Notes under the pieces: model-generated | What the model was told of the DNA's origin: nothing | The model's database searches: none | Seen by the model: only the letters and a program-made list of their open reading frames with translations | Program-made: the position numbers and the translations under genes | NCBI GenBank assembly: GCA_030390025.1 | Contig: CM059431.1 | Span: forward strand, 113,834,001-113,898,000 | Length of the DNA stretch: 64,000 nucleotides | DNA from: Squalus acanthias | Taxonomy: Eukaryota | Reading direction: 5' to 3' | Part shown: positions 1,960 through 51,265 of the stretch, piece by piece | Position numbering within the stretch: the first letter of the stretch is position 1 | How the letters are laid out: each line of letters begins with the position of its first letter

Positions 1960-2898
1960 AATGATGCGGAGATGCCGGCGTTGGACTGGGGTGGACAAAA
2001 ATGAGAAGTCGCACAACACCAGGTTATAGTCCAACAGCTTTATTTAAAATTACAAGCTTTCGGAGCTATCGATCGCCCCTTCTTCAGGTAAAGTCACTAT
2101 GAGTGAATCTACAAAAGTTCACAGAATATAAACACAGAAAATGCAGAGATACAATCTTTCCTTACATCAAAGACACACCAAGAGCACAGCCAAGACAATG
2201 AGATGTGTCCCAGGGGGTCCAACGTGTCAAATCCTGCTGTCTGCATATCCTCTCCATATCCCTTCCTCTCTCTCCGTCCTTTTTGGGTTTGTTTTTTGGG
2301 GTTTTTTTTGTGTTTGTTTTTTAAAAACTGGAAAGACAGACAATTATGTCAAGTCACGTTCTGTAGCGTGACATGAACCCGATATCCCTATTGAAGCCGT
2401 CCTCATGAGTGCGGAACTTGGCTATCAGTTTCTGCTCGATGATTTTGCGTTGTCGTGTGTCTCGAAGGCCGCCTTGGAGAACGCTAACCCGCAGATCCGA
2501 GGCTGAATGCCCTTGACTGCTGAAGTGTTCCCCGACTGGGAGGCAACCATCCTGCCTGGTGATTGTTGTGCGGTGTTCGTTCATACGTTGTCTCAGTGTC
2601 TGCATGGTCTTGCCGATGTACCATGCTCTGGGGCATCCTTTCCTGCAACGTATCAGGTAGACAACGTTGGCTGAGTCACATGAATATGTACCATGTACCT
2701 GGTGGGTAGTGTCCTCACGTGTGATGACGGTATCTGTGTTCATGATCTGGCATGTCTTGCAGAGGTTGCCGTGGCAGGGTTGTGTGGTGTCGTGGTCGCT
2801 GTTCTCCTGACAGCTGGGTAATTTGCTGCGAACGATGGTACTTTTGAGGTTAGGTGGCTGCTTGAAGGTGAGTAGTGGAGGCGTGGGGATGGCCTTAG
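1960..2898 (-). mobile_element. 5'-truncated Penelope-like retroelement (Neptune-type: Cys linker plus GIY-YIG endonuclease)
   Basis: Open frame 2898->2354 reads ...FKQPPNLKSTIVRSKL...QPCHGNLCKTCQ...NVVYLIRCRKGCPRAWYIGKTMQTLRQRMNEHR...GFN; 8-bp TSD CAAGAAAG at 1952-1959 and 2899-2906. Confidence 0.9.
2050..2091 (-). ncRNA. Minimal type-I hammerhead ribozyme motif in PLE 3' end
   Basis: Minus-strand RNA UUAC-CUGAAGA-A-GGGGC(GAUCGAUA)GCUCC-GAAA-GCUU-GUAA: intact core, 5-bp stem II, palindromic AGCU stem III, 4-bp stem I. Confidence 0.8.
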
Positions 2899-3250
2899 CA
2901 AGAAAGGAGGGAGTGCATTGGTGACAGTCTTGTCAGGTTTTTAGAGAATGTGCCTGTCATGTTAGAATAACTGGTATGTAGTGTGTCAGATCTGAGGTGT
3001 GGAGAAGAGAGAGTTGCAAAAGTGGTCAATGTGTGAGTATGAGGAGAAAGAGGTGTAGTAAAGTATGGTGCAGTGACTGTAGGAGAGTGAAGGGTAGCAG
3101 GGTGAGGCTGAAGGTGGTGGAGATCTCCACAGAGTAAGAGAGTATTGTTACCGTGACAATTCTGGTGAGGTCATTGAACTTCTTTCGGCATTGCATCCAT
3201 GTCCTCAGGTAAGCTTTTAACATTTACCTGCTCTATGATATCTTCCCATT

Positions 3251-3712
3251 GAACATAAGAACATAAGAAATAGGAGCAGGAGTAGGCCATTTGGCCCATC
3301 GAGCCTGCTCCGCCATTCAATAAGATCATGGCTGACCTACCTCATCTCCACCTTCCTGTACTATCCCCATATCCCTTGATTCCCTTAATATCCAAAAATC
3401 TATTGATCTCTGTCTTGAATATACTGAACGACTGAGCCTCCACAGCCCTCTGAGGTAGAGAATTCCAAAGATTCACCACCCTCTGAGTGAAGAAATTTCT
3501 CCTCATCTCAGTCCTAAATGGCCGACCCCTTATTCTGAGACTGTGACCCCTGGTTCTAGACTCCCCAGCCAGGGGAAGCATCCTCCCTGCATCTACCCTG
3601 TCAAGCCCTGTAAGAGTTTTGCATGTTTCAATGAGATCACCTCTCATTCTTCTAAACTCTAGGGAATATAGGCCGAGTCTACTCAATCTGTCCTCATAGG
3701 ACAATCCCTCCA
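3251..3712 (-). mobile_element. CR1 LINE 3' fragment inserted in H1 ORF2 exon 1
   Basis: ORF2 C-terminus GLSYEDRLSRLGLYSLEFRRMRGDLIE...RNFFTQRVVNLWNSLP; (TTCTTATG)n tail. Confidence 0.92.
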
Positions 3713-4704
3713 CTGAAAATGCAATTATTGCCTGGAGGGCTTTCTGCCCGCTGGGAGCGGGGCGGGGGGTTGGTGGGAACAGAATCTCCCTCCTCCTGTC
3801 CACTGCCTGCACCACGGCCTCCAAGGCAGCCTCGGAAAGCCTTGGTGCCCTCTCAGTATACGCTGCTGCCATTTCTGTGTAGAGACCTGTGTCCCAATTG
3901 TCTGCAGCCAGAGTGCACCTCCCCTTTAAGAGGTGCTTGGTGCCATTAACTGGCATCAGATACATCCAATATCCGGCCCCACAAACAGGCGTGTGGCCAA
4001 TGACTCAAGATAATGAGCACGCAGCACGAATATTATGGGCTGCCTGGGACAACTCTTTTTATGACGTTGGGCCTGCCAGAAATCCCACCCCTCCGTATTG
4101 GCGATCTTCCCCTTAACTGTAAAACTCGTGGGCAGCTCGACTGTGACAGGATATTGTGGCCTGCCCATCAAAATGGTTCGAACCTCTCAAGGGCGAAGAG
4201 CACGGTCGCCACACTCATGCGGCGCCGCTTTGGTGCCCGAAGTGAAAATTGACCCTGATAATAATAGTCCCATCTGATTTGTTATTATTGGCATAATATT
4301 CTAGGCTGGTCGTATTGAGGAGAAAATACATTCAGACCGAGGGTAAAAATCCTGTGGATTTCAGTAAATCCCACTGCAGACTTTCAAACTTTCAACAAAA
4401 AAAAAATCTTCTTTGAATTTATCTAAATGATGTGGTTCTCAGCTGATTTCCACTGAGCCAGTTTATACATCAGTGGCGGAACAGGATGAGTGAAGTTACT
4501 GAGCTTGACAGCGTGTAGGAGCTGATGTAACATCAGCAGAGATGCAGTTATTAGCCAAGAGTGCTTCGATAATTATGTCATTTTAACTGCATAGAATAAT
4601 TCAGCTGCTTCATGCTGTTAGTTCCATCAATAGTATCAACACTCACCATTTAAACAAAATATTCATGGAAATAACAGAAGTGCTGTAGAATGAGACATGT
4701 GTTT

Positions 4705-4853
4705 GAACATGTACTTGAAGAGGACTAATTTGCAGGGTTATGAGGAAAAAGCTGGGGTCTGGAACTAAATTGGACGGCTCTTTCAAAGAGCCGGCACAGG
4801 CACGATGGGCCGAATGGCCTCCTTCTGTGCTGTAAGATTGTACGATTCTATGA
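4705..4853 (+). mobile_element. CR1 3' UTR/tail fragment
   Basis: GGGCCGAATGGCCTCCTTCTGTGCTG followed by ATTCTATG-type tail. Confidence 0.75.
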
Positions 4854-4925
4854 AAAGCAAAAGGACATTAATGTCGATCATAGCTTAAATAATTGACTCT
4901 GATTTTAAAAAGGGCTACTGATAGT

Positions 4926-5676
4926 GGCCCTGAATTTGTGGTCGGAGGCTTCCTGCGGGCGGATGCCTCTGACCAGCAAAAAATCTACAAACTTACCTGA
5001 TGATCCCGGAGGTTCGGACACTCGCGCTCCTGGGCCTCTATGCGTTGGCCTGTGTAGATGCCCATGCATCCCAGGGGCGCAGGCGGTTCGCAAGCGCCCC
5101 TGGGATCACGTGGGCTGGCCCAACCAATGAAAGAAAGGGATCCCCATTCATACTTATGAGGATTCCGTATGTACAGAAACCCCATAAGCATGAATGGGAA
5201 TACCCCCAAAAAATACACGTACACTTCAAATAAATTTTTTAAAAATCACATATTTAAAATTAATCAAAATGGCATTTAGTTAAACATTTAAAACAAAAAT
5301 GTAATTTTTTGGAAAATAAATGTACATGTTTTAAAGGGGCTAACAATAAACTTGCCTTATTTCACAGGTTTTTAAATGTATAAATTATTGAAAAAAATTT
5401 ATTTTTCTGTTCTTGAAAAGTCTTACCCCGGTAAAAGCAGGTCTTATGCCTGCTTTTACCAGGCATAAGAATTTCACGGGCATTCGCTGGGTAGAACTCT
5501 CCGCCCGCGGAGGCCCTTTTCCCGGGGATGCGGAGGAACTGTAAAGAAAATTCTTGACAGATCGCAAGTTCCAGGTTTTAGCGCATGCACCTTGCATACC
5601 TAAACCTGGAACTTGCGTGGCTCCTACGGGCGCGTGCGCACCTCGTACACACCCATTGGGTCGCAAATTACGGCCC
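4926..5676. mobile_element. Harbinger-type MITE A
   Basis: TIRs GGCCCTGAATTTGTGG / TCGCAAATTACGGCCC; flanks AGT/AAT; GC-rich arms around an AT-rich core. Confidence 0.75.
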
Positions 5677-5892
5677 AATAATTCATTCTTTAAAGTGAAA
5701 TAGGGAGACTTCTGACAAATAAGCTTCACATGATGCAGGGCTTTGATGAGGCCTACTTATAGGATTTAGCAAAAAAAATTGATGTAAAGTTTCTACGTAA
5801 ATTCTGGATACTATTTTTTCAGAGACACTTAAAAAGTAACAGTACATTTGTACATTATTAATCTTACCACCTCACGCTAAAAAAAATAATAA

Positions 5893-6263
5893 TTTAAAGT
5901 TATGAAGAGGTTTGATAGGGAGACACAGGGAAGATTTTTCCACTTGTGGAGAGACCAAAACCAAGCATCATAAATATAAGATAATCACGAATAAATCCAA
6001 TAAGGCATTCAGGAGAAACTTCTTTACACAGAGAGTGGTTAGAATGTGGAACTTGCTACCACAGGGAGTAGTTGAGATGAATAGCATAGATGCATATAAG
6101 GGGAAGCTAGATAAGTACATAAGGGAGAAAGGAATAGAAGGATATGCTGATAGGGTTAGATGCAGTTGGGTGGGAGGAGGCTTGTGTGGAGCATAAACAC
6201 CAGCATAGACCAGTTGGAACGAATGGCCTGTTTCTGTGCTGTAAATTCTATGTAATTCTATGT
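5893..6263 (+). mobile_element. CR1 3' fragment
   Basis: FRRNFFTQRVVRMWNLLPQGVVE; (AATTCTATGT)n tail. Confidence 0.9.
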
Positions 6264-9200: not shown

Positions 9201-10540
9201 ATTGTACCATAAGTATGTTTTGTGCTGAAAATATTACTTTTAAAGTATCTACACCACCTTTAGTCTTGCTACATTGACATTTTCCCTGTATGGTGACATG
9301 ATTAAAAATTCCTCTTTGGTTAGCATTACTGAATTAGTAACAACCTATTGACCAGATATTGAATAATCGGCAGTTGTTACTGTTATGAAGGGCATCTGAT
9401 GAAAATCTATGTATATATACCTCCACACCAAAACAATTCAACGTAATATATTGTATTCCTGTTAGACGTACAAGTGGTTTTCCACAGCTGTTCAATACTT
9501 AACCAAGAAGACTAGATTACTAATATACTATTAATTTATTTTGAAATGTACTGTTTTGTATTTAGGACAGGTTTGAACTGATTAACGGGCTTAGGATATA
9601 ATATTTACACTGACTAGGCTAGTACATAGAAATGAACAATCAGCAGATTAGTGCCTTTCTTCAGAATGGGGGTACAAAATTATCTAATGGAGAAATTAGT
9701 CTAATTACTATTATGCATAATTGAAACAAGCACCTAGATAAATAGCAAGGGAAAAGTTTAGCTTTCACAAAAAAACTCATATTTGCCAATGTATAATTAA
9801 GTGGAATTAATTGTATTGTTACATAGGAATTTAGACTTTATTCCCCCTAGTCCATTTGAACATTACTGCTTCATTCTCCTCTGATTAACTACCAATCATC
9901 TTGTTCATGTTATATCAGTAACAGAGTGTAATTGTAGATTGCTTCCTTCTGTAAAATGTTTCCTTCTTCTCATATTTTCCTTAATTTCTCTTCCAAAATG
10001 AACTTCCTGCTTTACTTCCTTCCTCCGCCACCCTCGTAGGATTTTTGCCTGGTAGACCAATGGAAGCCTCTGTGGGTGCCAGCTTTGACATTCGCTCACT
10101 AAGAAGCATGTTTGTCCAGTCCAGAAAGGGATCCATTCCCTCCTGACCCCTCGAAGCAGATTTTCCTTCCCTTCGATAAACAATCTTTGTTAAAACTGCC
10201 AAAACTCAGCAACTAACTGGAAAGCTCAAGTGTGAATGCCAGTCAATAATAGGGGTTAAGTTGCCATATTGGAACCTTGATCCAGCCTCTACGCTCAAAT
10301 ATATGTGAGCAGATTGGTGGACATGCTTAATTTATTCCTCCTTCATTGTTCCTCTAAATATACTATTCTGTTCACTCGTTCCTCTGCCTGTGTTGAAACC
10401 ATCTTCTACTCAAACAAATTTTTTCCTAGGACCTTAAAACCACGGAACTTCTTACTTCATTCAGCCTTCCCTTCCCCAGGCTTTCAAAATCCAAGCTTGA
10501 CATTACCTAGACACAGCTTCTTGATACATATTTATAATAA

Positions 10541-10730
10541 AGAGAGGAATTGCTGGAAATACACAGCATCTGTAAAGAGAAAAGGCAGGTTGAAACGTTT
10601 TGGGTGTGTAGCCCTTCATCAGAACTGAAGACGAGGTCTGATGAAGTTTACACCTTTTCCATATCATAGCCTGTGTTTTTTCTTTACAATTGCTATCTGC
10701 TTTTATTTCAGATTTCCAGCATTTGTAATT
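10541..10730. mobile_element. Old inverted pair of PLE 3' ends with degenerate hammerhead motifs
   Basis: CTTCATCAGA (10614-10623) and TCTGATGAAG (10637-10646) are inverted; left arm resembles the minus-strand PLE end and right arm ends TTTCAGATTTCCAGCAT. Confidence 0.6.
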
Positions 10731-10811
10731 TTTTCTTCAAATTTTTATGTTGTCTTCTCTCTTCACCTTTTGGTAGTATCCTAGAGTATGGTCTTTGGCT
10801 TCTCAACAAGC

Positions 10812-11282
10812 AAAGAAAGACTTGCATTTATATAGCGCCTTTCACAATCTCAGGGTGTCCCAAAGTGCTTTACCGCCAATGAAGTACTTTTGAACCGTAG
10901 TTACTATTGTAATGTAGGGAAACACGGTAACCAATTTGCACACAGCAAGCTCCCACAAACAGCAATGTGATAATGACCCGATAATCGGTTTTGGTAATGT
11001 TGATTGAGAGATAAATATTAGCCAGAACACCAGGGAGAACTGCCCTGCTCTTCTTTGAAATAGTGCCGTGGGATTTTTTTTTTAACGTCCATTTCCAGAT
11101 GGCAGATGGGGGCTCAATTTAACGCCTTATCTGAAAGACAGCACCTCTGACAATGCAGCGCTCCCTCAGTACTGCACTGGAGTGTCAGCCTAGATTATGT
11201 TTTCAAGTCTCTGGAGTGGGACTTGAACCCACAACCTTCTGACTCAGAGATGAGAGTGCTACCCACTGAGCCATGGTTGACA
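10812..11282 (-). mobile_element. tRNA-derived DeuSINE (SacSINE1-like), full length
   Basis: A box TGGCTCAGTGG, B box GGTTCAAGTCC, Deu-domain core and L2-like tail AAAGGCGCTATATAAATGCAAGTCTTTC; highly similar copies at 39318 and 61171. Confidence 0.85.
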
Positions 11283-13099: not shown

Positions 13100-14388
13100 C
13101 TCCTACACCACTGTCCAGGGCCTCAAACATTCCTCCAACCTAGTGTACTGTATTTGCTGCTCACGGTGTGATATTTTCTACATTGCGGAGACTAAACACA
13201 GATTAGCCGACCACTTGACGGATCACCTCAGTTCTGTCCGTAAGGTCAACCCCGAGCTCCCTATTGCAAACTTGTTTTCATACTTGCTTTTTTTTCCCAC
13301 TATCACCTCAGCTATTCTCACATTCCCTGTGTCTCACAAATGTCTTTAATTTCTCTCAATATGTCTTCTATGATCTCATGTTATTATCACTTCAGCCATT
13401 TAACCATGATCTGTTTTCCACTTCAGCATTTTACGGGTCATTACTATTTGTGTGCGTGTGTGTTTTCCTCCCCCCCCCCTTCCCTTTTTTTGAATGTTGT
13501 TCCTCTATAATGGGCCGAAAATAGATCCCGGGACGCGAGAGTACGCACTGCGTACTCTCGCGTATTCCCACTCCAATTGCCGGTTTTCTGCATGCCCTGC
13601 GCATGCGCTGAAAACCGGCAATTGCTCTTCTGAAAAGGGGGCGGGTCCTCGGTGCATCGCGTGCGCGCTACAGGCTGCACGCACGCTGTGCACTTCATGC
13701 TTTGGACGCGCAGGTAAGTACGGAAGATTTTGGAAATGTAAAAAGGAGGAGTAAGACCCACTTTTAAGAAGGTAAGTAGTGAATTAAGTATTTTTTTTAA
13801 CAGGTATATCTTTTTTAGAGACTTTAAAGACAGGTAAGTTTATTTTTATAACTTTTTAAAAGATTTTTCATTTTTTCAAAAATTTAATTTTTTATTTAAA
13901 ATGGTTAATTTAATTAACTATACTTATTTTGTTAATGTGATGGGTTTTTTTTAAATTTAATTGAGGTTTAGCTGTTATTTTGGGGGGGTGTAAGATTCAT
14001 AGATTTCACAGCCGTGCTGTGAAACTTATGAATGGAAGATGGTGTGCTGCCATTGGCTCTAACTGAGTCACGTGATCCCACAGCTCGCACGAATTCACTA
14101 CGCCGCTGGGATACGCAAGCACTGCCCAGCTGATGTCTGGAACATCAAGTTCGTGCGAGCTGGATCTGAAAAAGCACAAGCGAGGTGAGAGATCGCGGGG
14201 AAGCCTTACCCCCGCGGGAACAGAGCGAGATCAATTTCTGGGCCAATACCTTCTAGTTCTGATGAAGAGTCCACACCTGCAACATTAACTCATCTGTTCT
14301 CTCTACAGATACTGCCTGACCTGCTGAGTGTTCCCAGCAATTTCTGTTTTAGTTTCAGATTTCCAGCATCTGCAGTTTTTTGCTTTTA
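13100..14388 (+). mobile_element. Decayed PLE (GIY-YIG remnant plus 3' end), split by MITE B
   Basis: YCICCSRCDIFYIAETKHRLADHL...ELPIA (13143-13270); 3' end with degenerate hammerhead AGTT-CTGATGA...GCAA-CATT-AACT (14255-14290) and CAGATTTCCAGCATCTGCAG. Confidence 0.75.
13512..14244. mobile_element. Harbinger-type MITE B
   Basis: TIRs GGGCCGAAAATAGATC / GATCAATTTCTGGGCC (12/16 match); TSD AAT on both sides. Confidence 0.85.
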
Positions 14389-16558: not shown

Positions 16559-16815
16559 AAGCAAAATACTGCGGATGCTGGAAATCTGAAATAAAAACAG
16601 AAAATGCTGAAAAGTCTCAGCAGGTCAGACAGCATCTGTGGAGAGAGAAACAAAGTTAACGTTTCAGGTCGATGAACTGGAAAAAGTTAGAGATGTAACA
16701 GGTTTTAAGCAAGTACAGAGGCAGGGAAAGGGGAGAGGGGAGGGGAGGAATGAACAAAAGGGAAGGTCTGCAAAAGGATGGAAGGCAGGAGAGATTAAAT
16801 GACAAAAGGGATGAT
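16559..16815 (-). mobile_element. PLE 3'-end fragment with the hammerhead core deleted
   Basis: Near-identical to 21456-21720 but lacks the ~12 bp that contain CTGATGA. Confidence 0.85.
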
Positions 16816-17359
16816 AGGACTTCTTATGGTTCTATTGGATCCAACACTTCCCACTCAATCCATCCAATGTGAAGATTTACAAAATTTGACAACAAGCCAC
16901 ATACAGATATTGGGACCAGTGACCAATAGCTTGGTCAAAGAGGTAGGTAGGATCTACAAAGGATTTCCTCAGAAACTATTTTTCACACTAACCAGATGCC
17001 AGGAGTTTGCAGTTTCGTGGCTTGTGGATTCAGTCATTTGTTTTCTAGGTAATGTAAATGCTCCTGTCCAGGAGCAGACCGGAGGAGAAGTGAGTACTGT
17101 GGGCTTCACAGCTGCCGATTTGGCTAGAGGTAGGCCACATTCAGACTTCTGTAGCACGCGTCAATAACATTAAGGAAGTGAGCTCCCAGCATATGTTGTG
17201 CCCATAATGCTAATTCATGGGCAAGTTTTGTTTAATCTTACATCAAGACATTTATGAGTATGGAAACAGCAGAGTGAGCAAGATGAAGTTCTCACATCTT
17301 AATGTGGAGGTGCTGCTTATGCAATTATACCTCAGGTGGGTGGTAGTATTTCTAGAATT

Positions 17360-21455: not shown

Positions 21456-21925
21456 AAAGCAAAATACTGCAGATGCTGGAAATCTGAAATAAAAACAGAA
21501 AATGCTGGAAATACTCAGCAGGTCAGGCAGCATCTGTGGAGAGAGAAACAGCGTTAACGTTTCAGGTCGATGACCTTTCATCAGAACTGGAAAAAGTTAG
21601 AGATGTAACAGATTTTAAGCAAGTGCAGGGGCAGGGAAAGGGGGGAGGGGAGGAAAGCACGAAGGGGAAGGTCTGTGATAGGATGGAAGGTAGGAGTGAT
21701 GAAATGACAAAAGGTATGATAGTACAAAGCAAAAGGAGATGGTAATGGACAAGTAAAGAAACAAAAGATGAGTTTAGAAGAAGTGTAAATGGGAATGGCA
21801 GAATCATCAACAGCTGCCATGTGAAAAAATAAGGGCAGAGGTTATGGTCTGAAATTGTTGAACTCGATGTTGAGTCCAGAAGGTTGTAAAGTGCCTAATC
21901 GAAAGATGAGGTGCTGTTCCTCGAG
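21456..21925 (-). mobile_element. PLE 3' fragment (GIY-YIG C-terminus plus 3' end)
   Basis: LEEQHLIFRLGTLQPSGLNIEFNNFRP* at 21842-21925; same terminus as the element at 41030. Confidence 0.9.
21553..21588 (-). ncRNA. Minimal type-I hammerhead ribozyme motif
   Basis: GUU-CUGAUGA-A-AGGUC(AUC)GACCU-GAAA-CGUU-AAC: intact core, perfect 5-bp stem II, ACGU palindrome. Confidence 0.8.
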
Positions 21926-22744
21926 CAGCTGTTGATGGCTTGTTAGTTTCAACCTTCATTGAATGTATTGTATTTTTCCACCTCCTAGTTCCCTCCACCC
22001 ACCCCAAATAACATTAGAGATTAACTGAGGTCACAACAAGTATAGTAACTGAACTAATGAGGTAAACAGTACATTCTCTTCTTTCTCATGGACTGAGAAA
22101 TGTGAGGACATAGTATCTCAATCATCAGAGTTCCCCTCAGACTAAAAAGCTTTATCAAACTCATCCAATCTGAAACCAGTGAAGATCTTAGCAGATGACG
22201 ACATTGCACCACGGACACAGTGTAGACATTCTGCTTCTCCAGATTTACCTACCGCTCACCCTCACCCACTGTTAGTATCTCTTATCAATGAGCATCAGAA
22301 GGTCATATAGAAGACGATGATAATGATGTCGATGGGGATGAAGATGAGAACTATTTTAACGTTAGGATTTTCTGGTACCTTCTTGTCTAGGGCTCCATGA
22401 ACTTTTCCCATGTCCAGTATGGAAGGATGTCATACACATTGAAGACACTGACCATCATGCCCTCTTGTAACCTCACAAACCTATAATTAGTGTCCAACAG
22501 CATGGGTATTTACTGTTGCCAAGTCACCAATATCAAAGCAAATTGTCTGTCTCTTATTGTCATTGTTTCTTTTGAGTGGCTTATGGCATACTCAAATGAT
22601 CTTTTACTACCTGATATGTATTTACCAACATTGTCTTTAGGCAGAACTTATAGACCTTATAGTACCCTTGTTAGATAATTTCAGGGTTCACAACCAGATT
22701 GAGAAGGGGTTTCAAAGCACTTCCAAATGGTTTAAAGGCTGTTG

Positions 22745-24877: not shown

Positions 24878-26083
24878 ATGGGGGGCTGTACTGGCAGTCG
24901 ACCTCGCCCTCCAGGATCGACAGCGGAGGGAGCGGAGGCAGCGAGAAAGATTGCAAGATGTGGCCAGAGGGAGGAGGAGGGCCATCAGGGCTCTCAACAG
25001 GAGGCCTTACCCTCCGAGGGTATTCCAAGAGCACTTCTCCTACCTCCAATTAAGTGAGGAGCAGTGCATCAGAAGGCTTCGCTTCAGCAAGGATGTGGTC
25101 ACCGAACTCTGCCACCTCCTGCAGCCAGACCTCGAGCCTAAGATCAGGTCGACCATGGCTCTCTTAGTGGCAGTTAAGATCACCATCGCCCTCAATTTCT
25201 TCGTCAGTGGTTCCTTCCATTCTGCAACAGGAGATATAGCGAACATCTCGCAGTTTGCCGTCCATCGCTGCATCTGGGAGGTCACAGAGACTCTCTACAG
25301 TAGGAGAAGGGACTACATTTCCTTCCCCATCACCAGAGAGAAGCAGGACAAACGTGCATGTGGCTTTGCCAGGATAGCTGGTTTCCCCATGGTGCAGGGC
25401 GCCATTGACTGCACCCACGTGACTTTGTGGGCGTCCCATAACAATTGTGAGATCTTCTGTAACCACAAAGGCTACCACTCACTTAATGTGCAGTTGGTGT
25501 GCGACCACAGACAGCAAATCCTCAATGTCAATGCCTGCTATCCTGGCAGCAGCCACGATGCCTTCATCCTGTGCCAGACCGGTGTGTCAGCACTCTTCCA
25601 ACCACCACATCAAGCTCGCGGCTGGCTGGTCGGAGACAAGGGCTATCCGCTCTCCACCTGGCTCATGACTCCCCTTTGCAACCCCAACACTCCAGCTTAG
25701 CACTCGTATAATGAGAGCCATGCCACCGCCAGGAACAACATCGAGCAGACCATCGGGGTGCTCAAGCAACGGTTCCGCTGCATTGACTGCTCGGGAGGAG
25801 CCCTCCAGTACTCGGCTGAGCGGGTGTCCCATTTCGTGGTGGTCTGCTGCATGCTCCACAACTTGACCATCATGAGGGCCCAGCCCTTGAACCAGGGATT
25901 GCAGGACCACCTCAGGAAGAGGAAGAGGGAGAGGACAAGGAGGACGAGGACGAGGAGGAAGAGGAAGATGAGGAGGAGGAGGAAGAGGAGGAGGAGAAAC
26001 AGGAGCGAGGGAGGAGGCAGCCTCTCAATCGGCCTTCTGGAAGGGCGGTCCGTGACCGCCTCATCAGACTGCAGTTCCAATAA
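24878..26083 (+). pseudogene. HARBI1-like DDE transposase of H2 (intronless; two frameshifts, one stop)
   Basis: ATG 24878 with +1 G in a G run; GAIDCTH, GDKGY and IEQTIG catalytic motifs; TAG at 25698; frameshift near 25890 into a poly-E tail ending RDRLIRLQFQ* (TAA 26081-26083, overlapping AATAAA). Confidence 0.92.
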
Positions 26084-26248
26084 ATTAAACCCCAGATCTC
26101 CATTGCTCACCACATCCCCATCATTCCATCCCTGTCACAGGCCATATCACAGCGCACAGCTGAAATGAGAGACACCACAAAATCATCCAAAGCCAAATAA
26201 TACATTTATCAATAATCAGTGAACACATATGTACAACACCAATATTAG

Positions 26249-28144
26249 CTATTCACCCTTGTGCAATACCTTCGTGCCCCTCGTTACAGTGCCTTTGCCT
26301 ATTCTAGTGCTCCTACGAAGTGTTGGCCCAGTGGCTGCAGCCCGGCGGGTGGAAGGCTGCTGAATGTCCGTGCGGGAGACTTCAGATGGCCTTGCAGGAT
26401 GCCCTCGACCAGCTCTGGGCCTGGAGGGCCCGGCTGGAGACTGCACCACCTCAGCATGGGCGGCAGCAGTCTTGACTGGCTGGATGACAGGCAGCGACAA
26501 GGGCAATGGCGGAGTGGCAATGGTGGGAGCAGGAATGCTGTCATCCTGAGAGAGGACAGCAGCTTCCTGCTCCACTGACCCACTGCCACTCCCCCGGGAC
26601 AGCACCTCAGCATCACTACCAATCTGTTGGAGCACAGATTGCTGGCCTGCTGCGGCACCGTGAAAGCTGGTGGTAGAGCCAGCCATGATGGCAGCGGTCA
26701 GAGCTTGCATGGCATCAAGCTGAAACTGCATGAGAGCAGTCTGAGAATCGATGGCACCAAGCATAGACTGAATTACAGCACTAAGACGTTGCGTGGCTTC
26801 TGCCTGTGCTGCAATGGAAGCTGCGACATCGCCCATCACACGCGGCATGAGGTCTGGGTTGCCACGGTCTCTCTGGGAGTCCACCATCCTTTGCAGACTG
26901 CAAATGATGGGCTCCATGGTGTGCGCAAAGCTCTGTGCAATGTTGGAGGCGGACTCCTCCACGCTCCTTACCATTGCCGAGAGGCTCTCAGGCACCCTTG
27001 CCATTGCACCTATCATCTCTGTGTGCAGGCCCATCACCCTTCTTCTAAAGGCCTCCCCATCGAGGTCCTCATCTGAGTCCTGTGCAGCAGAAGTCGCACA
27101 TGAACTCGCCCTCCGTGGAGCTGACTCCCGAGCTACCCTTTCCCGCTGGCTTTGCTGCAGCCCGCTCGTCCCCTGTTCATCACCCTATGCAGATCCCTAT
27201 ACTATACTAGCCTCTAAAGAATGCGTAGTGCCAGTATCTGAGCTGGTGCCTGTGGGTGAGACATGCACTGACGCAGTGAGTTCTTCCTCCTCCTCCTCTC
27301 CCGCCTCGCTCTCTATGGTGCCCTCAGGGTCAGGCTACTCAGGTGCTTGCTCATTATCTGAAAACATAAAGGCACAAGAGTCGGGTTAAGGTGAGGGGAG
27401 GGGGCAGGAAGGGTAAAAGGCATGCATACAGCATGATTATCTGGAAAGTGGGAAAGGCTTGTGGGGTGAGGGGGAAGTGGGATGTGAGAAGAAGGAGTAG
27501 GGATGAACATACCGTTGTTGTCCCCAAGGGGGTCAACGTCGCCGGTGACCACGGCCCCCACCACCTGGCACCCAATAATTTGCAGCACTCTTTCCTCCAG
27601 TGCAGACAGTGGTTGGGTGTCAGGTTGTCCCCTGCCTGTGTGCTCCTGTTCTCTCCTGTTGTGTGCCACCTTGGCCTGCAAGAGAGAGGAAAGTGTGTGA
27701 GTGAGTGTGGAGCAATGTGTTTGGGAGATGTGCCTTCCATAGTTGAATAGCTGTCATTGTGTGCAAGGTGTGAGATGTGGGTGTGAGTGTTGGTAGGTGG
27801 AGATTGTTGGTGGGTGAGTGCTGGGGTGTGGTGCTTTGGCCAGTGTGTGCAGACTGTGGTTGAGATGGTGGTATGTAGCATTTGTTGAGGCATTGACTCA
27901 CCCTGACCACCCCAGTGAGGTCGTTAAATTTCTTCCTGCACTGTGTGTGGGTCCTGGGGACCACAGTGCTGCCTGAGACCTGCTGGTCTACCTCCCTCCA
28001 CATGGCGCAGAAGACTTGCGGCGAGGACCTCCTGCCACTTGCCGGGTACAGCACCGCCCTCCGTCTCTCCACAGCGAAGACCAACGCCTCCAATGCTTGG
28101 TCGCAGAATCTGCGAGCTCTCTCCCTGGGCCGTTGATCTGCCAT
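26249..28144 (-). pseudogene. Three-exon Myb/SANT(MADF)-coiled-coil ORF2 of H2 (504 codons; three in-frame TAG stops)
   Basis: Exons 28144-27902 (243 nt, ends QCRKKFNDLTGVVR|GTGAGT), 27675-27513 (TTGCAG|...|GTATGT) and 27357-26249 (TTTCAG|); total 1515 nt in a single frame. Confidence 0.88.
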
Positions 28145-29593
28145 AATGACACCTCCTTCAGTGGTCCGGTTCCTTCTCCTGGGCCTTCTGATGCTTGCTG
28201 AGACAGCTGCAGAACCAGCAATGCTGAGAATGAGGTTCTGCAGCATGATTGAACCTCCCCTTTAAGAACTGGAAAGAGCCTGTGGCAATGATGACTAGCG
28301 ATTTCACTGCACCTGAAATTGCTTAGCGCCACTGAGCTAGGTCATGAGCGCTTGATTTAGCGCTCACATACCTTTCTTTGAGCGCTAACACTTACTTTAG
28401 CGTGCAGCGAGATTCATTAGCGCCTGGCGCTAAATCTCAAACTTTTCAGAAGTTAGCGCCCACTCCTGGGCGATAATGAATTTCTCCCCCAAAGTCTTTC
28501 TCTGTATACATTTTGTTGCCGTTTCCATTATAAATGCCTATGTCCATATTTGTAATGGATTTCTGTCCCCCCGCCATGCCAGTTTTCTGGTATCAGGTGA
28601 ATTTTGATATTTTCAGTGGTCTCCCAGGGCAATTCTTGCTTGTTTTGGGGACTCCAAACTTTGGGAGGGAGGGAAATCACTGTGACAGGCCTTGAGTACA
28701 CACACCATAATGAGGCTAGCTACCTCTAGAACAGCTGTCAAAGATTCTTTTCTTTTCAAAGGACTTGATCACGGGGCTGGGGAGTGGAATTATCTGGCCA
28801 GTGATCAATTTAATTCCTTTTACGGCATTTAAAATTTAAATTGCTCCTTCTCTGCACGGCCTAGCAATGCTGTATGTCAGGAATGCCATTCCGAGAGTGC
28901 AGCATTGCTATATTGCAAATAATGGGAAGTACATCATATGTATTCATGTCATTTCCATGCTATTAAAATATGCCAACACGTATTTGGCAGTGATATTGAA
29001 CACTAATGTCACTTCAGTAGGAAATCCCTGAAGTTTTCAGTAGGTGATGAGGGCCCAGCGGAACAGCTCCCTGACTGTTCTTCTCTTCCCAGGCAGCCTG
29101 CATAACTCCAGAGGAAAATTAACCTCGCTATATCCCTCGACTAACTAAAGGCATCTTTGTTTGGGCACCAGTGGTGACGACCCAGTTAGACACCTAGCAA
29201 TAGGGTCTTCAATTTCTTAGATTTCAAAACTCGCAGCAGAGTTTTGTGTCTAGAACAGAGTGCATCAATAATTAGCAGCAACAATAATGCAAGGCAGCAA
29301 TTGTAAGTGGACTTTGCCTTCCATCTCAGTCGACAGAACGCTCTGCCATATATACCCAATTTCCCACCTCTCTTCCCCAAGGGTGGGAGGAGTCATAAGT
29401 CCACCTTCCCACAACCTGGTCTATCAGAATCATGATAGATGATTTTGTGTGTGTGTGGTGGGGGGGGCGCGGGGGGGGGGCGGCGGTCAAGAGGAAGTGT
29501 TAGTCATGATGCTAATATTATGGTGTGAGGCAGGCTTGATGGATCAGCTGGTCTTTTCCTCCCCGTCAATTTTCTATGTTCATATGACACAGA

Positions 29594-30388
29594 GGGCTGG
29601 ATTTTGCTGGGTCCCATCCGCATGGTGCAGGGTCACCCGGGAGAAGCCAGGAAGCCCGGAAGGTCGGGTTTCCCGGCCCGCTGTGGGGTTTTAACTCCAC
29701 AGCATGCGTGCGACGTGAAGGACAGGTTCCCCGACTGGAAGTCAGCCTGATTGTCAGTCTGGCTTCCAGTCGTGCGGGGAACTCGGAGAAGGAGGCCACA
29801 GTAACAGCTAAGTGCTGGGCCCAGGGTGGTGGGGGGCAGGGGGGCCGAGCCCGGGGGGTCTGATTCCCCCCGGGGGGAGGTCCAATCCCCGAACCCGGGG
29901 CCAAATCACGATCCCGGGGGCGGGGGTGTTGGGTGTTCCAGGCCCAGAGGGGGATCTGATCCCGGAGGGGTCTGAACCCAGACCCTGGTATGGGGGGTGC
30001 AGGCTGATGCTGGGGGAGCTTGGGGGGCTGGGTGGAAGCACTCCCACTCCTCCCGGCTCACAACATTGTTCCCCAAGGCTGAGGCCGCCTCGTTGCAGCC
30101 ACTGGGAATCCCGAGCCCCGGGATCCCCGGCCGCCTGCAGTAAAACCTACAAAGCCGGTTAAAGTAGAGGCTTCAGGCCACAATATAATATGCAAATTGC
30201 CAACCCGCCTCTTGGCAGCGGTTTGGCAACCCCCCACCTCGCCGCCCCCCCCCCCCGCCCCGTCCCGCCTGAGTAAAAAGTGAAAGTGAGTGGTTTGGAG
30301 GAGGGTTGGGGTCAGGGTTCACATTTGCACAACTTTCACTTCCCACCCGCCTCTAACCCACCCGTTCTTGCCTCAGAAAATTCCGGCC
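29594..30388. mobile_element. Harbinger-type MITE E (H3-like ends)
   Basis: GGGCTGGATTTT / AAAATTCCGGCC; flanks AGA/ATA; internal homology to MITE I at 43829. Confidence 0.82.
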
Positions 30389-41029: not shown

Positions 41030-41838
41030 GATAGCAAAATACTGCGGATGCTGGAAAATTGAAACAACAACAGAAAACGCTGGAAAAACTCAGCAGGCCA
41101 GGCAACATCCGTGGAGAGAGAAACAGAGTTAACGTTTCAGGTCGAAACCCTTCGTCAGAACTGAGAAAAAAGCAGGAAATGAAACAGATAAAAAAGCAAG
41201 GGGGAGGTTGGGGGGAGGAATAACTATGGTAAGTAGAGACATTAAGAGATGCTCAAGGCAAGACGAGATGGTAATGGGACAGGTTAAGAAACAAAAGGTG
41301 GCTAGAAGTGTGAAGTGTGAAATGCTGGCAAAATGAGAGACAGCTGCCGTAGGGGGAGAGAGAGAAAAAAAAGGAAAAAGGCACGAACCAAAAGGGTGGA
41401 TAAAATGTATATATATGTGGTAGGGGCCGAGGTTATGATCTGAAATTGTTGAACTCGATATTGAGTCCGGAAGGCTGTACAGTGCCTAAACGAAAGATGA
41501 GGTGCTGTTCCTTGAGCTTACGCTGAGCTTCCGTGGAACAATGCACGAGGCCGAGGACGGTGAGGTCTGAGTGGGCATGGAGCGGTGAATTAAAATGACA
41601 AGCGACCGGAAGCTCGGGGTCACCCTTACGGACTGAACGGAAGTGTTCCGCAAAGCGGTCACCCAATCTGCGTTTGGTCTCCCCAATGTAGAGGAGACCG
41701 CATCGTGAGCAGCGAATACAGTATACTAGATTGCAAGAAGTACAAGTAAATCGCTGTTTCACCTGGAAGGGGTGTTTGGGGCCCTGGAGAGTGTGAAGGG
41801 AGATGTATAAGGGCAGGTGTTGCATCTCCTGCGCTTGC
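41030..41838 (-). mobile_element. 5'-truncated PLE with intact GIY-YIG frame
   Basis: RFTCTSCNLVYCIRCSRCGLLYIGETKRRLGDRFAEH...SGLNIEFNNFRS* (stop at 41433); 6-bp TSD ATAGTC at 41024-41029 and 41839-41844. Confidence 0.92.
41127..41162 (-). ncRNA. Minimal type-I hammerhead ribozyme motif
   Basis: AGUU-CUGACGA-A-GGGU(UUCG)ACCU-GAAA-CGUU-AACU: intact core, stem II capped by UUCG, 4-bp stem I. Confidence 0.85.
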
Positions 41839-43028
41839 ATAGTCACCAAGAAATCAAATAGGGAATTCGGAAGAAACTTCTTTACCCAGAGAGTGGTGAG
41901 AATGTGGAACTCACTACCACAGGGAGTGGTTGAAGTGAATAGTATAGATGCATTTATTGGGAAACTAGACAAGCATATGAGGGAGAAGGGAATAGAGGGT
42001 TATGCTGATAGAGTTAGATGAGGAAAGACGAGAGGAGGCTCATGTGGAGCATAAACGTCGGCATGGACTGATTGGGCCGAATGGCCTGTTTCTGTGCCAT
42101 ATATCCTATGTAATTCTTAGTGGCCAATTTCATGGCAACAATGGGAAATACTTGCAGCCAGCTCCCTTGTCCACTTTCTCGGCCTGAAAAGGTATTTCAT
42201 AATGGAAGACTGAGAAGAAGGGAGGGAGAAAAATACTTTCAAATGAATGATTCCCATGCTCAGCAGTAAAAGAGTTATTTATACTAGCAACAGGTAGCTA
42301 GCAGGTGCTTTTATTATTTATATTGTAGATCTGCACTGTTCTTGTGCAGTGAAACATTGTGTGATACGTTTTCTATAAGTAGAATACATAGAATCCATTA
42401 TCCACTGGCCAAGTTATGTCTGACTATGGGGGATCAAGTATTTCTTCTTACAGCTCCTAGTAGTGGGGGAATTATGTCTAAACTTGGTCAGTCAGTGATG
42501 TTGAGAATGTTTACTCTCACTTATACATCGGTCATAGATTTTTTGGTAAAGCAAGAGTGGAGTTTGCCTTTTATACAGTATACACAGCAGAAAAAAGAGT
42601 GAAACACATTGAACTTTGAACTTATGAATATTGGGGCACATGGCCAACAGGTTCAGTTCAAAAGTCAACACTTCCCCAACCCTTCTAGGTATCAACATAT
42701 CCCTGGATTTTTGTAATGTAGTGTGCACACTGAAAGTCATAGAGGAAAGGGTAATTATCTCATAATAGCTCTGCTAATCTTTACCCCCCTAAAAAGCAAC
42801 ACATCCCAATATATAGGAAAAGGTTTCACTTTCATAATCACACAAACCCTTTCTTCAGCTGTCAAAAGGAAAAAAAGATATACTGCTAATGGACAACTAG
42901 ATAAATAAACAGCCAGGACTGAATTGGTTCCAAACACTACCGAGATGGTACATTCTGGTATTCTTTTCTGTACTGGTCTGGTATTGGTGGTATTCACAAA
43001 AAGCTTAAAACAGGGAAATAATAAGGGA

Positions 43029-43125
43029 TAACAACAGAAAATGCTGGAAACACTCAGCAGGCCAGGCAGCAACCGTGGAGAGAGAAACAGAGTTAACGTT
43101 TCAGGTCTGGGACCCTTTTGCTATT
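43029..43125. mobile_element. 97-bp PLE terminal fragment with internal inversion
   Basis: 14-bp TSD GAAATAATAAGGGA (43015-43028, 43126-43139); body on - while the terminus TTTTGCTATT is on +. Confidence 0.82.
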
Positions 43126-46260: not shown

Positions 46261-47105
46261 GGGCTGGATTTTGCCAATGGGGAGCTTTTGGAGGCGGGAC
46301 TCCCACTTGTCGGGTTTCAGTCCCGCCGCCATCAACTTCTGGCTAACCCACGCTATTTTCCCTTGATTGACCTTGTTAAGCCCGTCCAGCGGGCTTAGCA
46401 GGCCTATTAAGGGAAAGCCGATTACAGAGAACGCCAACGTATGACGTTTCATCTGTCAAAAATTTTTGACAGATGAATTGTCATCGTTTGACAGCTCTGT
46501 GAAGCTGTCAAACACTGACATTCTCTGTAGTTTGATGAGTTCTTAAATTCAAGACCTCAACAAACCTCTTTCTTTTGCAGAAATTAGATGGTTGCTGCAT
46601 TGGAGAATGCAACGGCCATCTATCATCTCTACCGCGGAGGTGCGAGACTCTCCGCATCCCCAACGATTAAAGCCAGCAGGAAGAAACAAAGGTAAGTACA
46701 CTTTTTCTAACACTTTGCACTTACCTCAGATACTCACCTCTCCACACATGCACCCATCACTTACCTTCACAGCGCACTTTGGCACCCCTCCGACCCCCTC
46801 CGACCCACTACTCGCCTCGGTGACCCTGGCGGGTTTCGGAGCCTTCGGGAAGCCCGCACTAGTGTGGGCAAAATGGGGATAATCCTATTTTCTGCCTGTT
46901 AACTGCCTGTTAACAGGCAGTTAAGTGGCTGTACTCCCTTCCCGCCTCCAAGGAGACAGGACCCAATGCGGGACGGCTACCCGCCTCCTGGCAAGATGGC
47001 ATAGAGGCGGGTTGGGGCGGGTTGGGCACCCGCCCCCAAATTCTGCCATTTTCCCAGCAGTGCTGCCTCCAAAACCGCCTCCCCAGGGCTGGCAAAATCC
47101 AGCCC
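46261..47105. mobile_element. Harbinger-type MITE G
   Basis: Perfect 16-bp TIRs GGGCTGGATTTTGCCA / TGGCAAAATCCAGCCC; flanks TCA/TAA. Confidence 0.92.
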
Positions 47106-47247
47106 TAAAATTCTTGACATAATTATTCTCGTAATAATTATTATTATTAATATCAAAATAATTGATACGTAAACAAAGATGTTTCGGTTAAACATTCAAA
47201 ATCCTCTCCTGAATTATCTAATCTCAGTCTAGGTGATGGTGAGAATA

Positions 47248-47545
47248 TTTTTTATTCTCAGGATATGGGCAATACCAGCAAGGCAGCCTTTATTGCCCAT
47301 CCCAAGCTGCCCTGAGGGCATTAAGAGTCAGCTATGTAGCATGGGACTAGAGTCACATGGAGGTCAGACTAGGTAGTGGTGGTAGGTTTCCTTCCCTGAA
47401 GTATATCAGGCAACAAGCCGACAACTTCCATGGTCATTTCTCTATTGGTAGTCCACAAAATACCAGATCTATTGAGCTCAGTTTCATATATTGCCATGGT
47501 GGTATTTGAATGCAAAATCTCTGGATTGCTAGTCTAGCATCACAA
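47248..47545 (-). mobile_element. Decayed SINE-like element, same family as 55040-55402
   Basis: Reverse-complement similarity (GGGAAGGAAACCT, GGGATGGGCAATAAA, poly-A end). Confidence 0.6.
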
Positions 47546-49862
47546 CTGTTAGTCGATCATAATCTGACTGGTCTCACTGTCCTCAAACTAGGGAGGAGAA
47601 AAATCAAGAGTTCCAACTTCTGCTGGCTATCCAGCAACTCCTAATGCAAATGAGTACGTGCGTGTAGATTCCAGGCAAGGAGAAAACTAAGCTCAGCTGT
47701 AATCCCCACCGACAGTTGAATAGTTCTGCACTTGCTGTTCAGACTCAAGCATAAAAGATGCTTTTATATTTTCTACTTCTGGACCCACTAAGACTGGAGA
47801 TCAAAAGAACCTACCCCTCTTAGTCCTTGCGTTTTTGCATTTGTCTTGTGCAAGACCCACATTTTGGGAGCCCAGCAGCATGAGCACAGGCCTCATCCAA
47901 TATAAAAGCATCTAAAGACTACCACTGTCATCAATGGAACCATAGCTCAACATGGATAGGTTACCTTCGTCAAGAGAGATTGGATGACGAGAAAAGATTA
48001 GAGAAAAAAAAATAACACTTAATATTAGAAACAATTTGACCTGAATTCTTTAGATACTTACAAGAAGGGGAATTATTAATATATCAATTTTGTTTTCCTA
48101 TTAGTCATTAGATTTAAATTAAAACAAATTTTCTGGCAATAATTATGAGCCATCAGCAGGCGAATATAAATGTTAGATAGCCCTTTTTAAATTTTGCCTT
48201 TTAATCAAGCTACTAATCTTCTCACTAAGTAAGTGGTTAACCTTTAGAAAAGATTGCAGCTTCTTTTTCCCAATTCCAACAAGCAAATACACTTGAGACT
48301 GGTACCATTTCCTTCTCTGCACAGTTCCGGAAATAGCTTAAAGGTACATACTTGTAAACTTTGGCAAAGTGCTTTGAATCTATCTCTTGTGAGTAATCAC
48401 TTAGCCAACGGTTACAGCAAGGACTAACCAGTTCCTAATTTTTAATAACCCAAAAAGCCCTCAGAACTGGGAGAGTGGTAGATGTCTCCCCACCCCACCG
48501 CCCCCCCCACCTCCAACCCCCCCCAGCTCTGCATCTGCTTTTGCAATATGGTTGTAAAGAGGAAACTGTGGGGTCCACAGAGAGAGAAAATCAAAGATCT
48601 GATAATTAAATAAGCTTTCCAGAAGAGCGTGCTTATTATTATACGTAATTTGGCAACAGAAGTTCTGATATTAAGCAAAATATTGAAAGTGTTGATGGTG
48701 GTGGAGTGTTCTGGTGCTCACAACACATTGTGCTACAAAGTGCTATGATCCGGGAATGCACTCGTCATTACCCACATATTGCACTGCTGATCACTACCAT
48801 GCCGTTCTAAGATAGCTCAAGACAGAGGCCAAATGTCTTTTCAGAGGGATAGGACAGTCAAAGGTGCCTCAGCCCAACACATCACCAGGTGATCAGTTAC
48901 AGAATACTGCAAGAGTACGGCACAGCCCTCCTGAACCCAGTAAGGCCTAAAAGAAATTGGAAAAAAGTATTAAAATAATTAGCTAAAATTAATTAAATAA
49001 ATAGAGCATGACTGTAACAATTAAGACAAGTGAATCCCACCATTTGGATAATAGTGAGTCCCACCATTTGGAAAGAAAGGGAATTGAACTGAGCCAGAGG
49101 TATCCTCTCAACACTAATAATTTTTGAGTTAGTAAAATTGTAATTCTTTGTTTGTTTTAAAGTATTTATTTTTATTTAAACAGCGAGCAGGCAACACAGC
49201 ATCAGAGCAACTGGCTCCAAAGAGGTAAGTTGACGTCAATGGAGATCCAGTAATGAACTTGGGAACAGATTTCCTCTGGTTGCAATGTGTTACCAACATT
49301 GTAAGTGTAGCAGGAAGACTTTCTGGGCTGGATTTTGCCGGCACTCAGAGGGCGGGTTTGGAGACGGGTCAGAGGTTAAAATCTTTTTCATTGACAGCGG
49401 GTTGTGATCCCGCCGTCAACCCGCCTCCACGCTACTTTGCCAAGTGCCGGCTCTGGGAGTTCCGATCGGTCCCGCCACCAAGTGGCGGGAGAGGCACTTA
49501 AGGCAGTTAACAGCTTGTTAACTGCCTGGATAAGCCGATTTTAACAGGGTCTTGCAATTTTATAACATTTTCAGTGTGTTCCACGCCGTTCGCAAACCAC
49601 GCCAGCTGATTGTGTCGGATTCAGCATGTACCTGACTTCTTGAAAGCTGCATCTCCAGCATAAAGCGGAGCTCTAACATGGCTCACTTACAGATGACAGA
49701 ACTTTGTTTTTTCAGGTGTTGGAACACTTTTTGCAGGTCTACTGATCTTGTAAGTGGTGAAGCTGAGATCCATATGCACTGTGACCTCCTGGGAAAACCC
49801 TCTGGCCACATTGACTGAGCGCTTATAACTTCTAGTCCTCAACTGACATATATACCAGCAGC

Positions 49863-51265
49863 ATGGGAACCATTTATACCCTCTCATCCTGGTCCTCAGA
49901 ATCAGAGGAAGAGCAGCCTAGGCAGCAGCAGAATCAGGCAAAACAGCAGCAGCAACAGCAGGAGCGCCAACCTCCTCCTCACCCACCTGATGCTGCACAG
50001 GGCAGAGGTGGTCAGCGCAGGGCTACAGCTTGCTGCAGGAGATACTCCCAACACAGGGTTTACAGGCTGAGGATGAGATTCCGCAACTTGATTGAGCAGC
50101 AGTGCCAAAGGAGGCTGAGACTTTCGCGAGAGGTAGTCGCTGACATCTACGCAGTGCTGCAACAGCACCTGGAGCCCAGAGGAACAGGTGGACACCCCTT
50201 ACCAGTGGCTGTCAAAGCCACCACCACCCTCAATTTTTTTGCTTCAGGGTCCTTCCAAGGATCATCAGCAGACATCAGCGGCATCTCCCAGTCGGCCGCA
50301 CACACTTGCATCATGCAGGTTACCGATGCCCTCTTTGCAAAGGTGCACAACTACATCCACTTCTCCATGGATGAAGCAAGTGTAACCGCTCGTGCGGTTG
50401 GCTTTGCAAATATGGTAGGCTTGCCAAGGGTGCAGGGTGTCGTAGACTGCTCACATGTGGCTATTAGGGCACCCCATCACAACCCAGCTGTATTTGTCAA
50501 CCGCAAGGGCTTCCACTCCCTTAATGTCCAGCTGGTGTGTAACCACAGGAAGAACATTATGCAATAGCAAAATACTGCGGATGCTGGAAATCCGAAATAA
50601 CAACAGAAAACGTTGGAAAAACTCAGCAGGCCAGGCAGCATCCATGGAGAGAGAAACAGAGTTAACGTTTCAGGTCGAAGACTTTTCGTCAGAATTGGGA
50701 CGAAAGGTCTTCGACCTGAAACGTTAACTCTGTTTCTCTCTCCAAGAACATTATGTATGTTTGCGCCAAGTTCCCTGGCAGTTGCCATGACTCGTTCATC
50801 CTGCGGCAGTCTACTGTGCCTCAGCTGTTCAATCTGCAAACCCAACTTTCCAGATGGCTATTTGGAGACAAGGGCTATCGCCTGAAGACGTGGCTAATGA
50901 CGTCGTTGAGAAGGCCATCAAACGAAGCTGAGGAGCGGTACAATGCGAGCCACATTTCCACCAGAGCCATCATCGAGCAAACCATCGGCTTGCTCAAAAT
51001 GCGATTCAGATGCCTCGACAGATCAAGTGGAGCCCTACTCACCAGCCAGGGTCTCAGCATTATCGTTGTCTGCTGTGTACTGTACAACTTCGCTTAGCAG
51101 CGTGGCGTCCCGCTGCCTGAGAAACAAGTGGCTCAGCGCAGAGCCTCCTCCTCAGAGGAGGAGGAGGAAGACCTTGCGGAGGCAGATGCGCCAGTTCCAC
51201 CAGCACGTGAGCACATTGCTGCCCGTTATGCAAGGGATGCACTAATCGATGCCAGATTCGATTAA
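49863..51265 (+). pseudogene. HARBI1-like DDE transposase of H3, disrupted by a mini-PLE
   Basis: GVVDCSH, GDKGY and IEQTIG motifs; removing the 194-bp insert-plus-TSD joins ORFs 49863 and 50753 in frame; one remaining TAG (51095); ends RDALIDARFD*. Confidence 0.92.
50562..50743. mobile_element. 182-bp fold-back mini-PLE with two opposed hammerhead motifs
   Basis: 12-bp TSD AAGAACATTATG (50550-50561, 50744-50755); 45-bp inverted repeat 50646-50690 / 50699-50743 with one mismatch and an 8-nt spacer. Confidence 0.92.

Follow-up and report, generated by a model that had tools for sequence, protein, structure and literature searches.

Minimal hammerhead motifs in the terminal repeats of two abundant Penelope-like element families of Squalus acanthias

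Hammerhead motifs in the window

The window analysed here is a 64,000-nt stretch of the Squalus acanthias genome (contig CM059431.1, positions 113,834,001 to 113,898,000, forward strand). It contains nine copies of Penelope-like elements (PLEs) and one isolated internal fragment, belonging to two families that we term TYAC and AGTT (Table 1). The motifs under study are minimal type I hammerheads in the terminal repeats of 5′-truncated PLE copies, downstream of GIY-YIG endonuclease remnants. A preliminary description, made from the sequence alone, had named eight places with such hammerheads, and the motif or its remains is present at all eight. The motifs are real and not chance occurrences: a strict descriptor (CUGANGA, stem II of at least 4 bp, GAAA, paired 15.2/16.2, U16.1, H17 and stem I of at least 3 bp) found three matches in the window, all on the minus strand (2050–2091, 21552–21588 and 41127–41162), versus two matches in 300 block-wise dinucleotide shuffles (mean 0.007).

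Those three motifs bear out the description given of them: the quoted stems and the AGCU or ACGU palindromes of stem III are paired, the extra A after CUGANGA is present in each, and the predicted cleavage triplets are CUU and GUU. Stem I of 21552–21588 has just 3 bp, its fourth position being A·G. At 2050–2091 the predicted cut lies after CUU (N17 = 2054), and the same motif occurs 38 times in the fetched genome loci. A fourth core reported as intact, at 50660–50696, did not satisfy the descriptor: its core is preserved, but stem I contains an A·C mismatch and the second pair of stem II is A·C. This motif forms one arm of a 46-bp inverted repeat, and in context it folds into a −84 kcal/mol hairpin that buries it. 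The two places called degenerate are indeed so, except that the one at 14255 lies on the plus strand, and the deleted core at 16670 and the truncation at 43090 were likewise found as reported. Six of the nine copies are thus already broken. The GGGU-UUCG-ACCU stem of 41127–41162 was considered as a private deletion and ruled out, because it recurs (14 occurrences, mostly in loci picked by likeness to it).

For all three intact cores the hammerhead lies 0.9–3.2 kcal/mol above the minimum and is not the preferred fold, and no two intact motifs on one strand of the window lie closer to each other than 19.5 kb. An Rfam scan of the window gave no hammerhead rows among 16 weak matches at E ≤ 10; this silence is no evidence, because Rfam models miss loop-less forms.

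Target duplications were found in three of the nine copies: 12 bp at the fold-back insertion, 14 bp at the 43090 stub and a candidate of 8 bp at the copy carrying 2050–2091 (1952 and 2899). The other six showed just 5–8-nt matches away from the copy ends. Leaving aside the fold-back unit, the copies lean to the minus strand 7:1 (p = 0.07), and the lean does not continue in two 10-kb flanks. A plus-strand piece of element tail lies at 10696–10734, near the old stub at 10530, and the fold-back insertion interrupts a DDE_Tnp_4 (Harbinger-type) transposase frame.

Table 1 PLE copies and hammerhead motifs in the window
Feature	Position	Strand	Details
5′-truncated copy, family TYAC (stem I UUAC/GUAA)	1961..2902	-	Open reading frame (ORF) end, 3′ untranslated region (UTR), terminal repeat
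C-terminal ORF remnant: CX4CxxC linker and GIY-YIG endonuclease	2357..2902	-	Pfam GIY-YIG E 3e-4, 21.3 bits, below 22.6 cut-off
Intact minimal hammerhead, family TYAC	2050..2091	-	Stem I 4 bp, extra A, stem II 5 bp with G10.1-C11.1, AGCU palindrome
Old stub, family AGTT	10530..10629	-	Core G12 to A, stem I broken
Isolated internal endonuclease-region fragment, family AGTT	13130..13261	+	77% to L091
Stub, family AGTT	14254..14386	+	Starts at first bases of stem I; GAAA to GCAA, palindrome broken
Truncated copy, family AGTT	16560..16820	-	12-nt deletion removes CUGANGA core
Truncated copy, family AGTT	21456..21926	-	Intact core 21552-21588: stem I 3 bp, stem II 5 bp, ACGU palindrome, GUU
Truncated copy, family AGTT	41030..41839	-	GIY-YIG remnant (stop at 41433); intact motif 41127-41162, GGGU-UUCG-ACCU subfamily
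Stub starting inside core	43029..43117	-	14-bp target duplication (43015 and 43126)
Fold-back insertion	50562..50744	.	Minus-strand stub 50562-50698 (motif 50660-50696) and 46-nt inverted copy 50699-50744
Old stub without hammerhead, family AGTT	55474..55555	-	Absent from the preliminary list

The host elements

Two intact motifs lie approximately 260–270 nt behind the stop of GIY-YIG frames. Element 3′ ends are fixed, approximately 95–130 nt behind the motif, and 5′ truncation is variable: across the 60 best-matching loci, homology stops at a fixed 3′ position and starts at scattered 5′ positions. The truncation series runs continuously from 90-nt stubs to elements that bear a reverse transcriptase (RT) and share the same 3′ ends. 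When six loci were extended upstream in search of longer copies, L095 proved to be a near-full-length TYAC element with the RT motif YIDD, a CX4CxxC linker and GIY-YIG; the window copy at 1961–2902 matches it at 97% over 944 nt. Starting from an ATG at 3936, its ORF spans approximately 890 codons and includes two stops, and the locus contains a 1.28-kb partial tandem and an inverted repeat. The RT and endonuclease of family AGTT are found in L091 and L093. An RT plus a C-terminal GIY-YIG share one ORF in L095, L094, L096, L091 and L093, and a CX2-5CxxC linker precedes the endonuclease in both families; RT identity between them is 36% over 359 residues. Pfam scores are weak: RVT_1 was detected in one of five pieces (L091, E 3e-5, below the cut-off), and GIY-YIG in both window remnants, the one in 41030–41839 scoring above the cut-off (E 5e-5). 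The TYAC repeat stops at the ATG of the following unit; the motif and its tail thus constitute the 5′ UTR in this family. The 5′ truncation, partial tandems, inverted partner and tail are all observed in genome copies. Judged by linker and domain layout, these features suggest endonuclease-containing (EN+) PLEs of the Neptune/Nematis type.

Several further arrangements were observed among the copies. One TYAC copy (L096:6897-7367) extends at its 3′ end past the ATG and runs approximately 390 nt into the following unit's ORF. Head-to-head fold-backs with intact motifs on both strands occur at L102:960-998 and similar loci (L008, L011, L287/L288, L290/L291), the joint falling on stem I or no more than a few bases from it. 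A third, diverged variant related to AGTT tails, with stem II AGAGUC/GACUC and GAGU replacing GAAA, was seen in the L159:3319 region (gene-sense numbering). Stem I of family AGTT is immediately preceded by a pyrimidine tract with CAG at its end (window 21553–21600 and 41127–41190, minus strand), which resembles a 3′ splice site or an initiator; in Drosophila, the Penelope intron ends at helix I (PMC4209133).

Conservation of the hammerhead structure

Covariation was assessed on 25 variants picked from 83 that had passed a core filter, comprising 17 of the 22 recurring variants and eight TYAC singletons. Five recurring variants were left out, four with likely CpG decay breaking a pair and one cut at the junction, so the paired share is inflated: 98.9% of cells pair, and nine of 11 pairs show two-sided changes. 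The covariation score was 0.77, versus 0.30 for shuffled and at most 0.09 for slid alignments. Most two-sided changes represent a single split between the two families; within families we found one two-sided change in stem I (U-A/C-G, with a U·G intermediate) and one-sided G·U/A-U changes in stem II. All 25 variants share the same catalytic core, for which they had been pre-selected. The loop-less palindromic stem III (15.2–16.2) is GC in 13 rows and CG in 12, and the AGCU and ACGU palindromes of the two families cannot pair with each other. The G10.1-C11.1 pair is kept in family TYAC (13 rows) and is G·U (seven) or A-U (five) in family AGTT. The unpaired base between 9 and 10.1 is present in all 21 gene-body motifs (see below) and all three intact window motifs. 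Together, these results show structural constraint on the motif within the element lineages, and the preliminary claim that the stems differ between families yet stay paired is upheld, apart from the window stems noted above.

Extra base and palindrome are class features of the minimal hammerheads described in the pseudo-long terminal repeats (pLTRs) of metazoan PLEs (Cervera and De la Pena 2014, PMC4209133; consensus CUGANGAH G..C GAAAN palindrome NUH). The final base of the cleavage triplet, counted over the 56 rows of Fig. S3 of that paper, is U in 24, C in 25, A in six and G in one. CUU and GUU are therefore not rare in the class, and their description as a less common choice does not stand.

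Copy number and spacing

Exact genome-wide searches of the 3.71-Gb genome returned 25,764 matches to a 35-nt AGTT pattern and 53,799 to a TYAC pattern (reversed controls, 0), corresponding to at least 79,563 intact motifs, one per 47 kb, in line with the very many dispersed copies foreseen in the preliminary description. The window holds two exact matches versus 1.4 expected and is thus ordinary for this genome. Among the first 100 copies listed per family, a same-strand partner lay within 5 kb in eight (TYAC) and 11 (AGTT), and a divergent inverted partner in 44 and 16, respectively. A tandem-repeat search found no tandem arrays of motif-bearing units in the window. Elsewhere, runs of three to four same-strand intact AGTT motifs, approximately 1.6–3.3 kb apart, were seen at G000:C1:6988689-6992106 and 7052562-7059145; these are tandem arrays where dimers could form. 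Contigs from sequencing runs, whose RNA origin is a guess, cover the TYAC repeat in four of four runs; their ends, strand and level are unreadable and they are not used as evidence.

These counts bear on whether the short copies form an independent non-autonomous family, retrozymes without long terminal repeats (non-LTR retrozymes) or a short interspersed nuclear element (SINE), replicating through small circular RNAs. PLE-related non-LTR retrozymes have been reported in vertebrates, including one cartilaginous fish (bioRxiv 10.64898/2026.07.22.740005), and the stubs here have target duplications of their own. The continuous truncation series with common 3′ ends argues otherwise, as do the missing monomer arrays in the window, the few same-strand neighbours and the lack of a cut-site junction excess (below), and we regard such a family as very unlikely.

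Copy starts and the cleavage site

Genome-wide, 43,770 AGTT copies carry the 25-mer directly behind the cut site. Two non-U bases precede the cut site in 349 of them, and the same pattern two bases further on occurs in 335, so there is no excess of AGTT copies starting at the cut. A cleavage footprint in the copy starts of this family is rejected on that control, and no more than approximately 1–2% of its copies could stem from cut RNA. GA begins 38 of the first 100 cut-site matches listed; an internal 6-nt deletion would give the same. Read by eye, none of 30 loci chosen by the downstream 25-mer begins at the cut: 18 extend well upstream, three begin at −12/−13, three at stem I and six inside the motif. 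Among 30 intact copies taken in genome order, seven have their start no more than 3 nt away from the first stem I base, and four of these show readable target duplications there. The absence of a cut-site peak indicates that inserted copies were made mostly from RNA that was uncut at that site.

The same starts could mean that the main job of the motif is structural and not catalytic, marking the RNA 5′ end (transcription start at stem I) or a site where the RT stops or jumps. Short stubs would then be 5′ UTR copies of uncut RNA, comparable to strong-stop DNA. Besides the seven genome-order copies at stem I, the 12 of 30 loci that begin between −13 and the cut site, the TYAC repeat ending at the ATG, and catalytic mutants that left insertion by a lizard PLE unaffected in vitro (Frangieh et al. 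2024, PMC11167929) speak for such a role. The two samples are small, however, come from one end of one contig and have five loci in common, and the starts are scattered along the entire motif, a pattern that stable hairpins would likewise produce through stalling or template switching. Moreover, the core is invariant across families with such divergent RTs, which argues that catalysis was kept. We therefore consider a mainly structural function possible but somewhat doubtful; it is compatible with the explanation proposed next and would refine it.

A model for the motif

We consider it highly probable that the motif derives from the terminal repeats of the elements, that its structure is selected in the own RNA of active elements, and that the dispersed copies are inert passengers, decaying once inserted. 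On tandem transcripts of the element, two motifs would pair via the 4-nt palindrome; by analogy with published PLE hammerheads, the motif probably processes tandem element RNA as a protein-assisted dimer. Reverse transcription would start inside the RNA, behind the motif, and mostly use uncut RNA, for which reason inserted copies would run through the cut site. In the lizard element, reverse transcription starts internally at two sites, which explains the tail, and no RNA reads ended at the cut site (PMC11167929). A lone intronic copy, partnerless and preferring other folds or a fold-back hairpin, would rarely cut.

Orientation and density in gene bodies

The preliminary description proposed that the dispersed cassettes could cut any host pre-mRNA crossing them. 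We examined 17 gene bodies, defined as same-strand clusters of spectrin and fn3 exon matches and not as annotated genes (140 tiles, 1,396,800 bases; titin and two wide two-hit clusters excluded). Intact motifs numbered 10 in sense and 11 in antisense. All repeat copies found by profile search numbered 35 sense and 43 antisense (p = 0.43), with an equal intact share on the two strands (p = 0.80). As insertion events, 14 solo copies were sense and 22 antisense, and 19 carried both strands. As controls in the same DNA, three 3′ ends of long interspersed nuclear elements (LINEs) gave sense:antisense ratios of 9:32 (p = 0.0004), 51:73 (p = 0.06) and 2:1, and a SINE gave 38:46; we take the control repeats to be CR1 and a SINE. 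Because the LINE control is biased, the strand assignment of the genes is credible, and a strong bias would have been visible; a moderate one would not. The orientation bias expected of host cutting is thus missing for intact motifs in these 17 gene bodies, a sample and not a genome-wide census.

A search of the 150 longest of 316 unmasked frames in the window revealed no convincing Pfam match to a host gene (one at E 0.0055 lies far below the cut-off); such a search could miss short exons and non-coding genes, and both strands of the window carry LINE ends.

Several observations weigh against the passenger model. Solo insertions lean to antisense (p = 0.24; 95% range of the sense share, 23–57%), and a moderate antisense bias among them may exist. 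Exact intact motifs are scarce in gene bodies, with 14 found (six sense, eight antisense) versus 29.9 expected (P = 0.001). Gene-body density is thus half the genome mean on both strands, and weak selection may be at work; with the motif present on both strands of many insertions, any selection against cutting copies could appear symmetric. For family AGTT, the search for longer copies yielded no full-length copy, so its 5′ UTR reading rests on analogy with family TYAC. Finally, the evidence for protein-assisted cleavage comes from a Poseidon-clade lizard element and not from these families.

If dispersed intact motifs cut sense host pre-mRNAs, as monomers, as trans dimers or with cellular chaperones, they would act as a genome-wide burden or regulator, and intronic sites in the tens of thousands would then be relevant to gene expression in this lineage. 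The number of intact motifs, the halved gene-body density and the solo ratio are in keeping with such cutting, and canonical intronic hammerheads are conserved in amniote genes (PMC6155905). However, sense copies persist in 1.4 Mb of gene bodies in nearly the number of antisense ones, and the solo ratio does not differ from that of ribozyme-free LINE ends (p = 0.85, with possible overlap between the two LINE queries). The shortage extends to the downstream 25-mer regardless of motif integrity (10 versus 16.5, P = 0.06), and the palindromes of the two families are mutually incompatible. In published work a monomer did not cleave and dimers cleaved at a low level (PMC4209133), one of nine dimers cleaved (bioRxiv 10.64898/2026.07.22.740005), and the lizard PLE hammerhead cleaved only with the element protein (PMC11167929). 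Given also the few same-strand partners and the balanced cut-site control, host-transcript cutting is unsupported by these first tests, and we judge it very unlikely.

In a related scenario, the approximately 80,000 intact motifs would be latent cut sites at which a PLE protein, for example in the germ line, switches on host pre-mRNA cleavage, weak selection having halved the gene-body density. If true, a transposon protein would be a genome-wide trigger of ribozyme cutting in host transcripts; we hold this to be very improbable.

Other features of the window

Harbinger-type (DDE_Tnp_4) transposase remnants lie on the plus strand at 49836–51097, 24879–26168 and 678–1127, the first of them being the frame interrupted by the fold-back insertion. 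Second frames on the minus strand (26249–28261 and 51909–53099) look like what we assume to be the Harbinger companion gene. Hairpins at 54576–54659, 46581–46626 and 30253–30363 gave weak matches to microRNA models, far below gathering scores, and are probably repeat-derived.

Comparison with known systems

A literature search over titles and the beginnings of abstracts, with most subscription papers outside its reach, returned no report of Penelope hammerheads in sharks and no intron-orientation test. Two vertebrate families of very high abundance are added here to a class already described, along with two first negative tests, intron orientation and cut-site starts. With very many young copies, this genome is suited to settle where PLE RNA starts, whether the hammerheads cut in vivo and whether they harm host genes.

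The closest relatives are the minimal hammerheads of PMC4209133, likewise of type I, lacking loop 3, with a palindromic 15.2/16.2, an extra base after CUGANGA and a short stem I. They also comprise several covarying families per genome and occur mostly as single motifs at the 3′ ends of truncated PLEs, with some opposite-strand pairs. In contrast, cartilaginous fish are not among the 56 rows of that study, and the 79,563 exact matches found here are approximately nine times its largest count (approximately 9,000, Xenopus). The G·U or A-U of family AGTT at G10.1-C11.1 also differs, a variant shared with a few published fish, coelacanth and frog rows.

In their RT, CX2-5CxxC linker and C-terminal GIY-YIG, as well as in their partial tandems, inverted 5′-truncated partner and optional 30–40-nt tail, the elements resemble EN+ PLEs of the Neptune/Nematis type, which the linker marks (Craig et al. 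2021, PMC8557442). PAc, the Poseidon element of Anolis studied in PMC11167929, likewise carries its hammerhead close to the start codon, with genomic copies that derive from uncut RNA and two 3′ ends approximately 30 nt apart behind the hammerhead. It belongs to another clade, and its motif overlaps the ATG, whereas the TYAC motif, known here from sequence, lies approximately 125 nt before it. Last, the non-LTR retrozymes of bioRxiv 10.64898/2026.07.22.740005 are similarly derived from PLE repeats, carry a type I hammerhead and are under-represented in introns, as reported for Xenopus. They are defined by tandem arrays of hammerhead units, whereas the window copies are solo or inverted truncation products.

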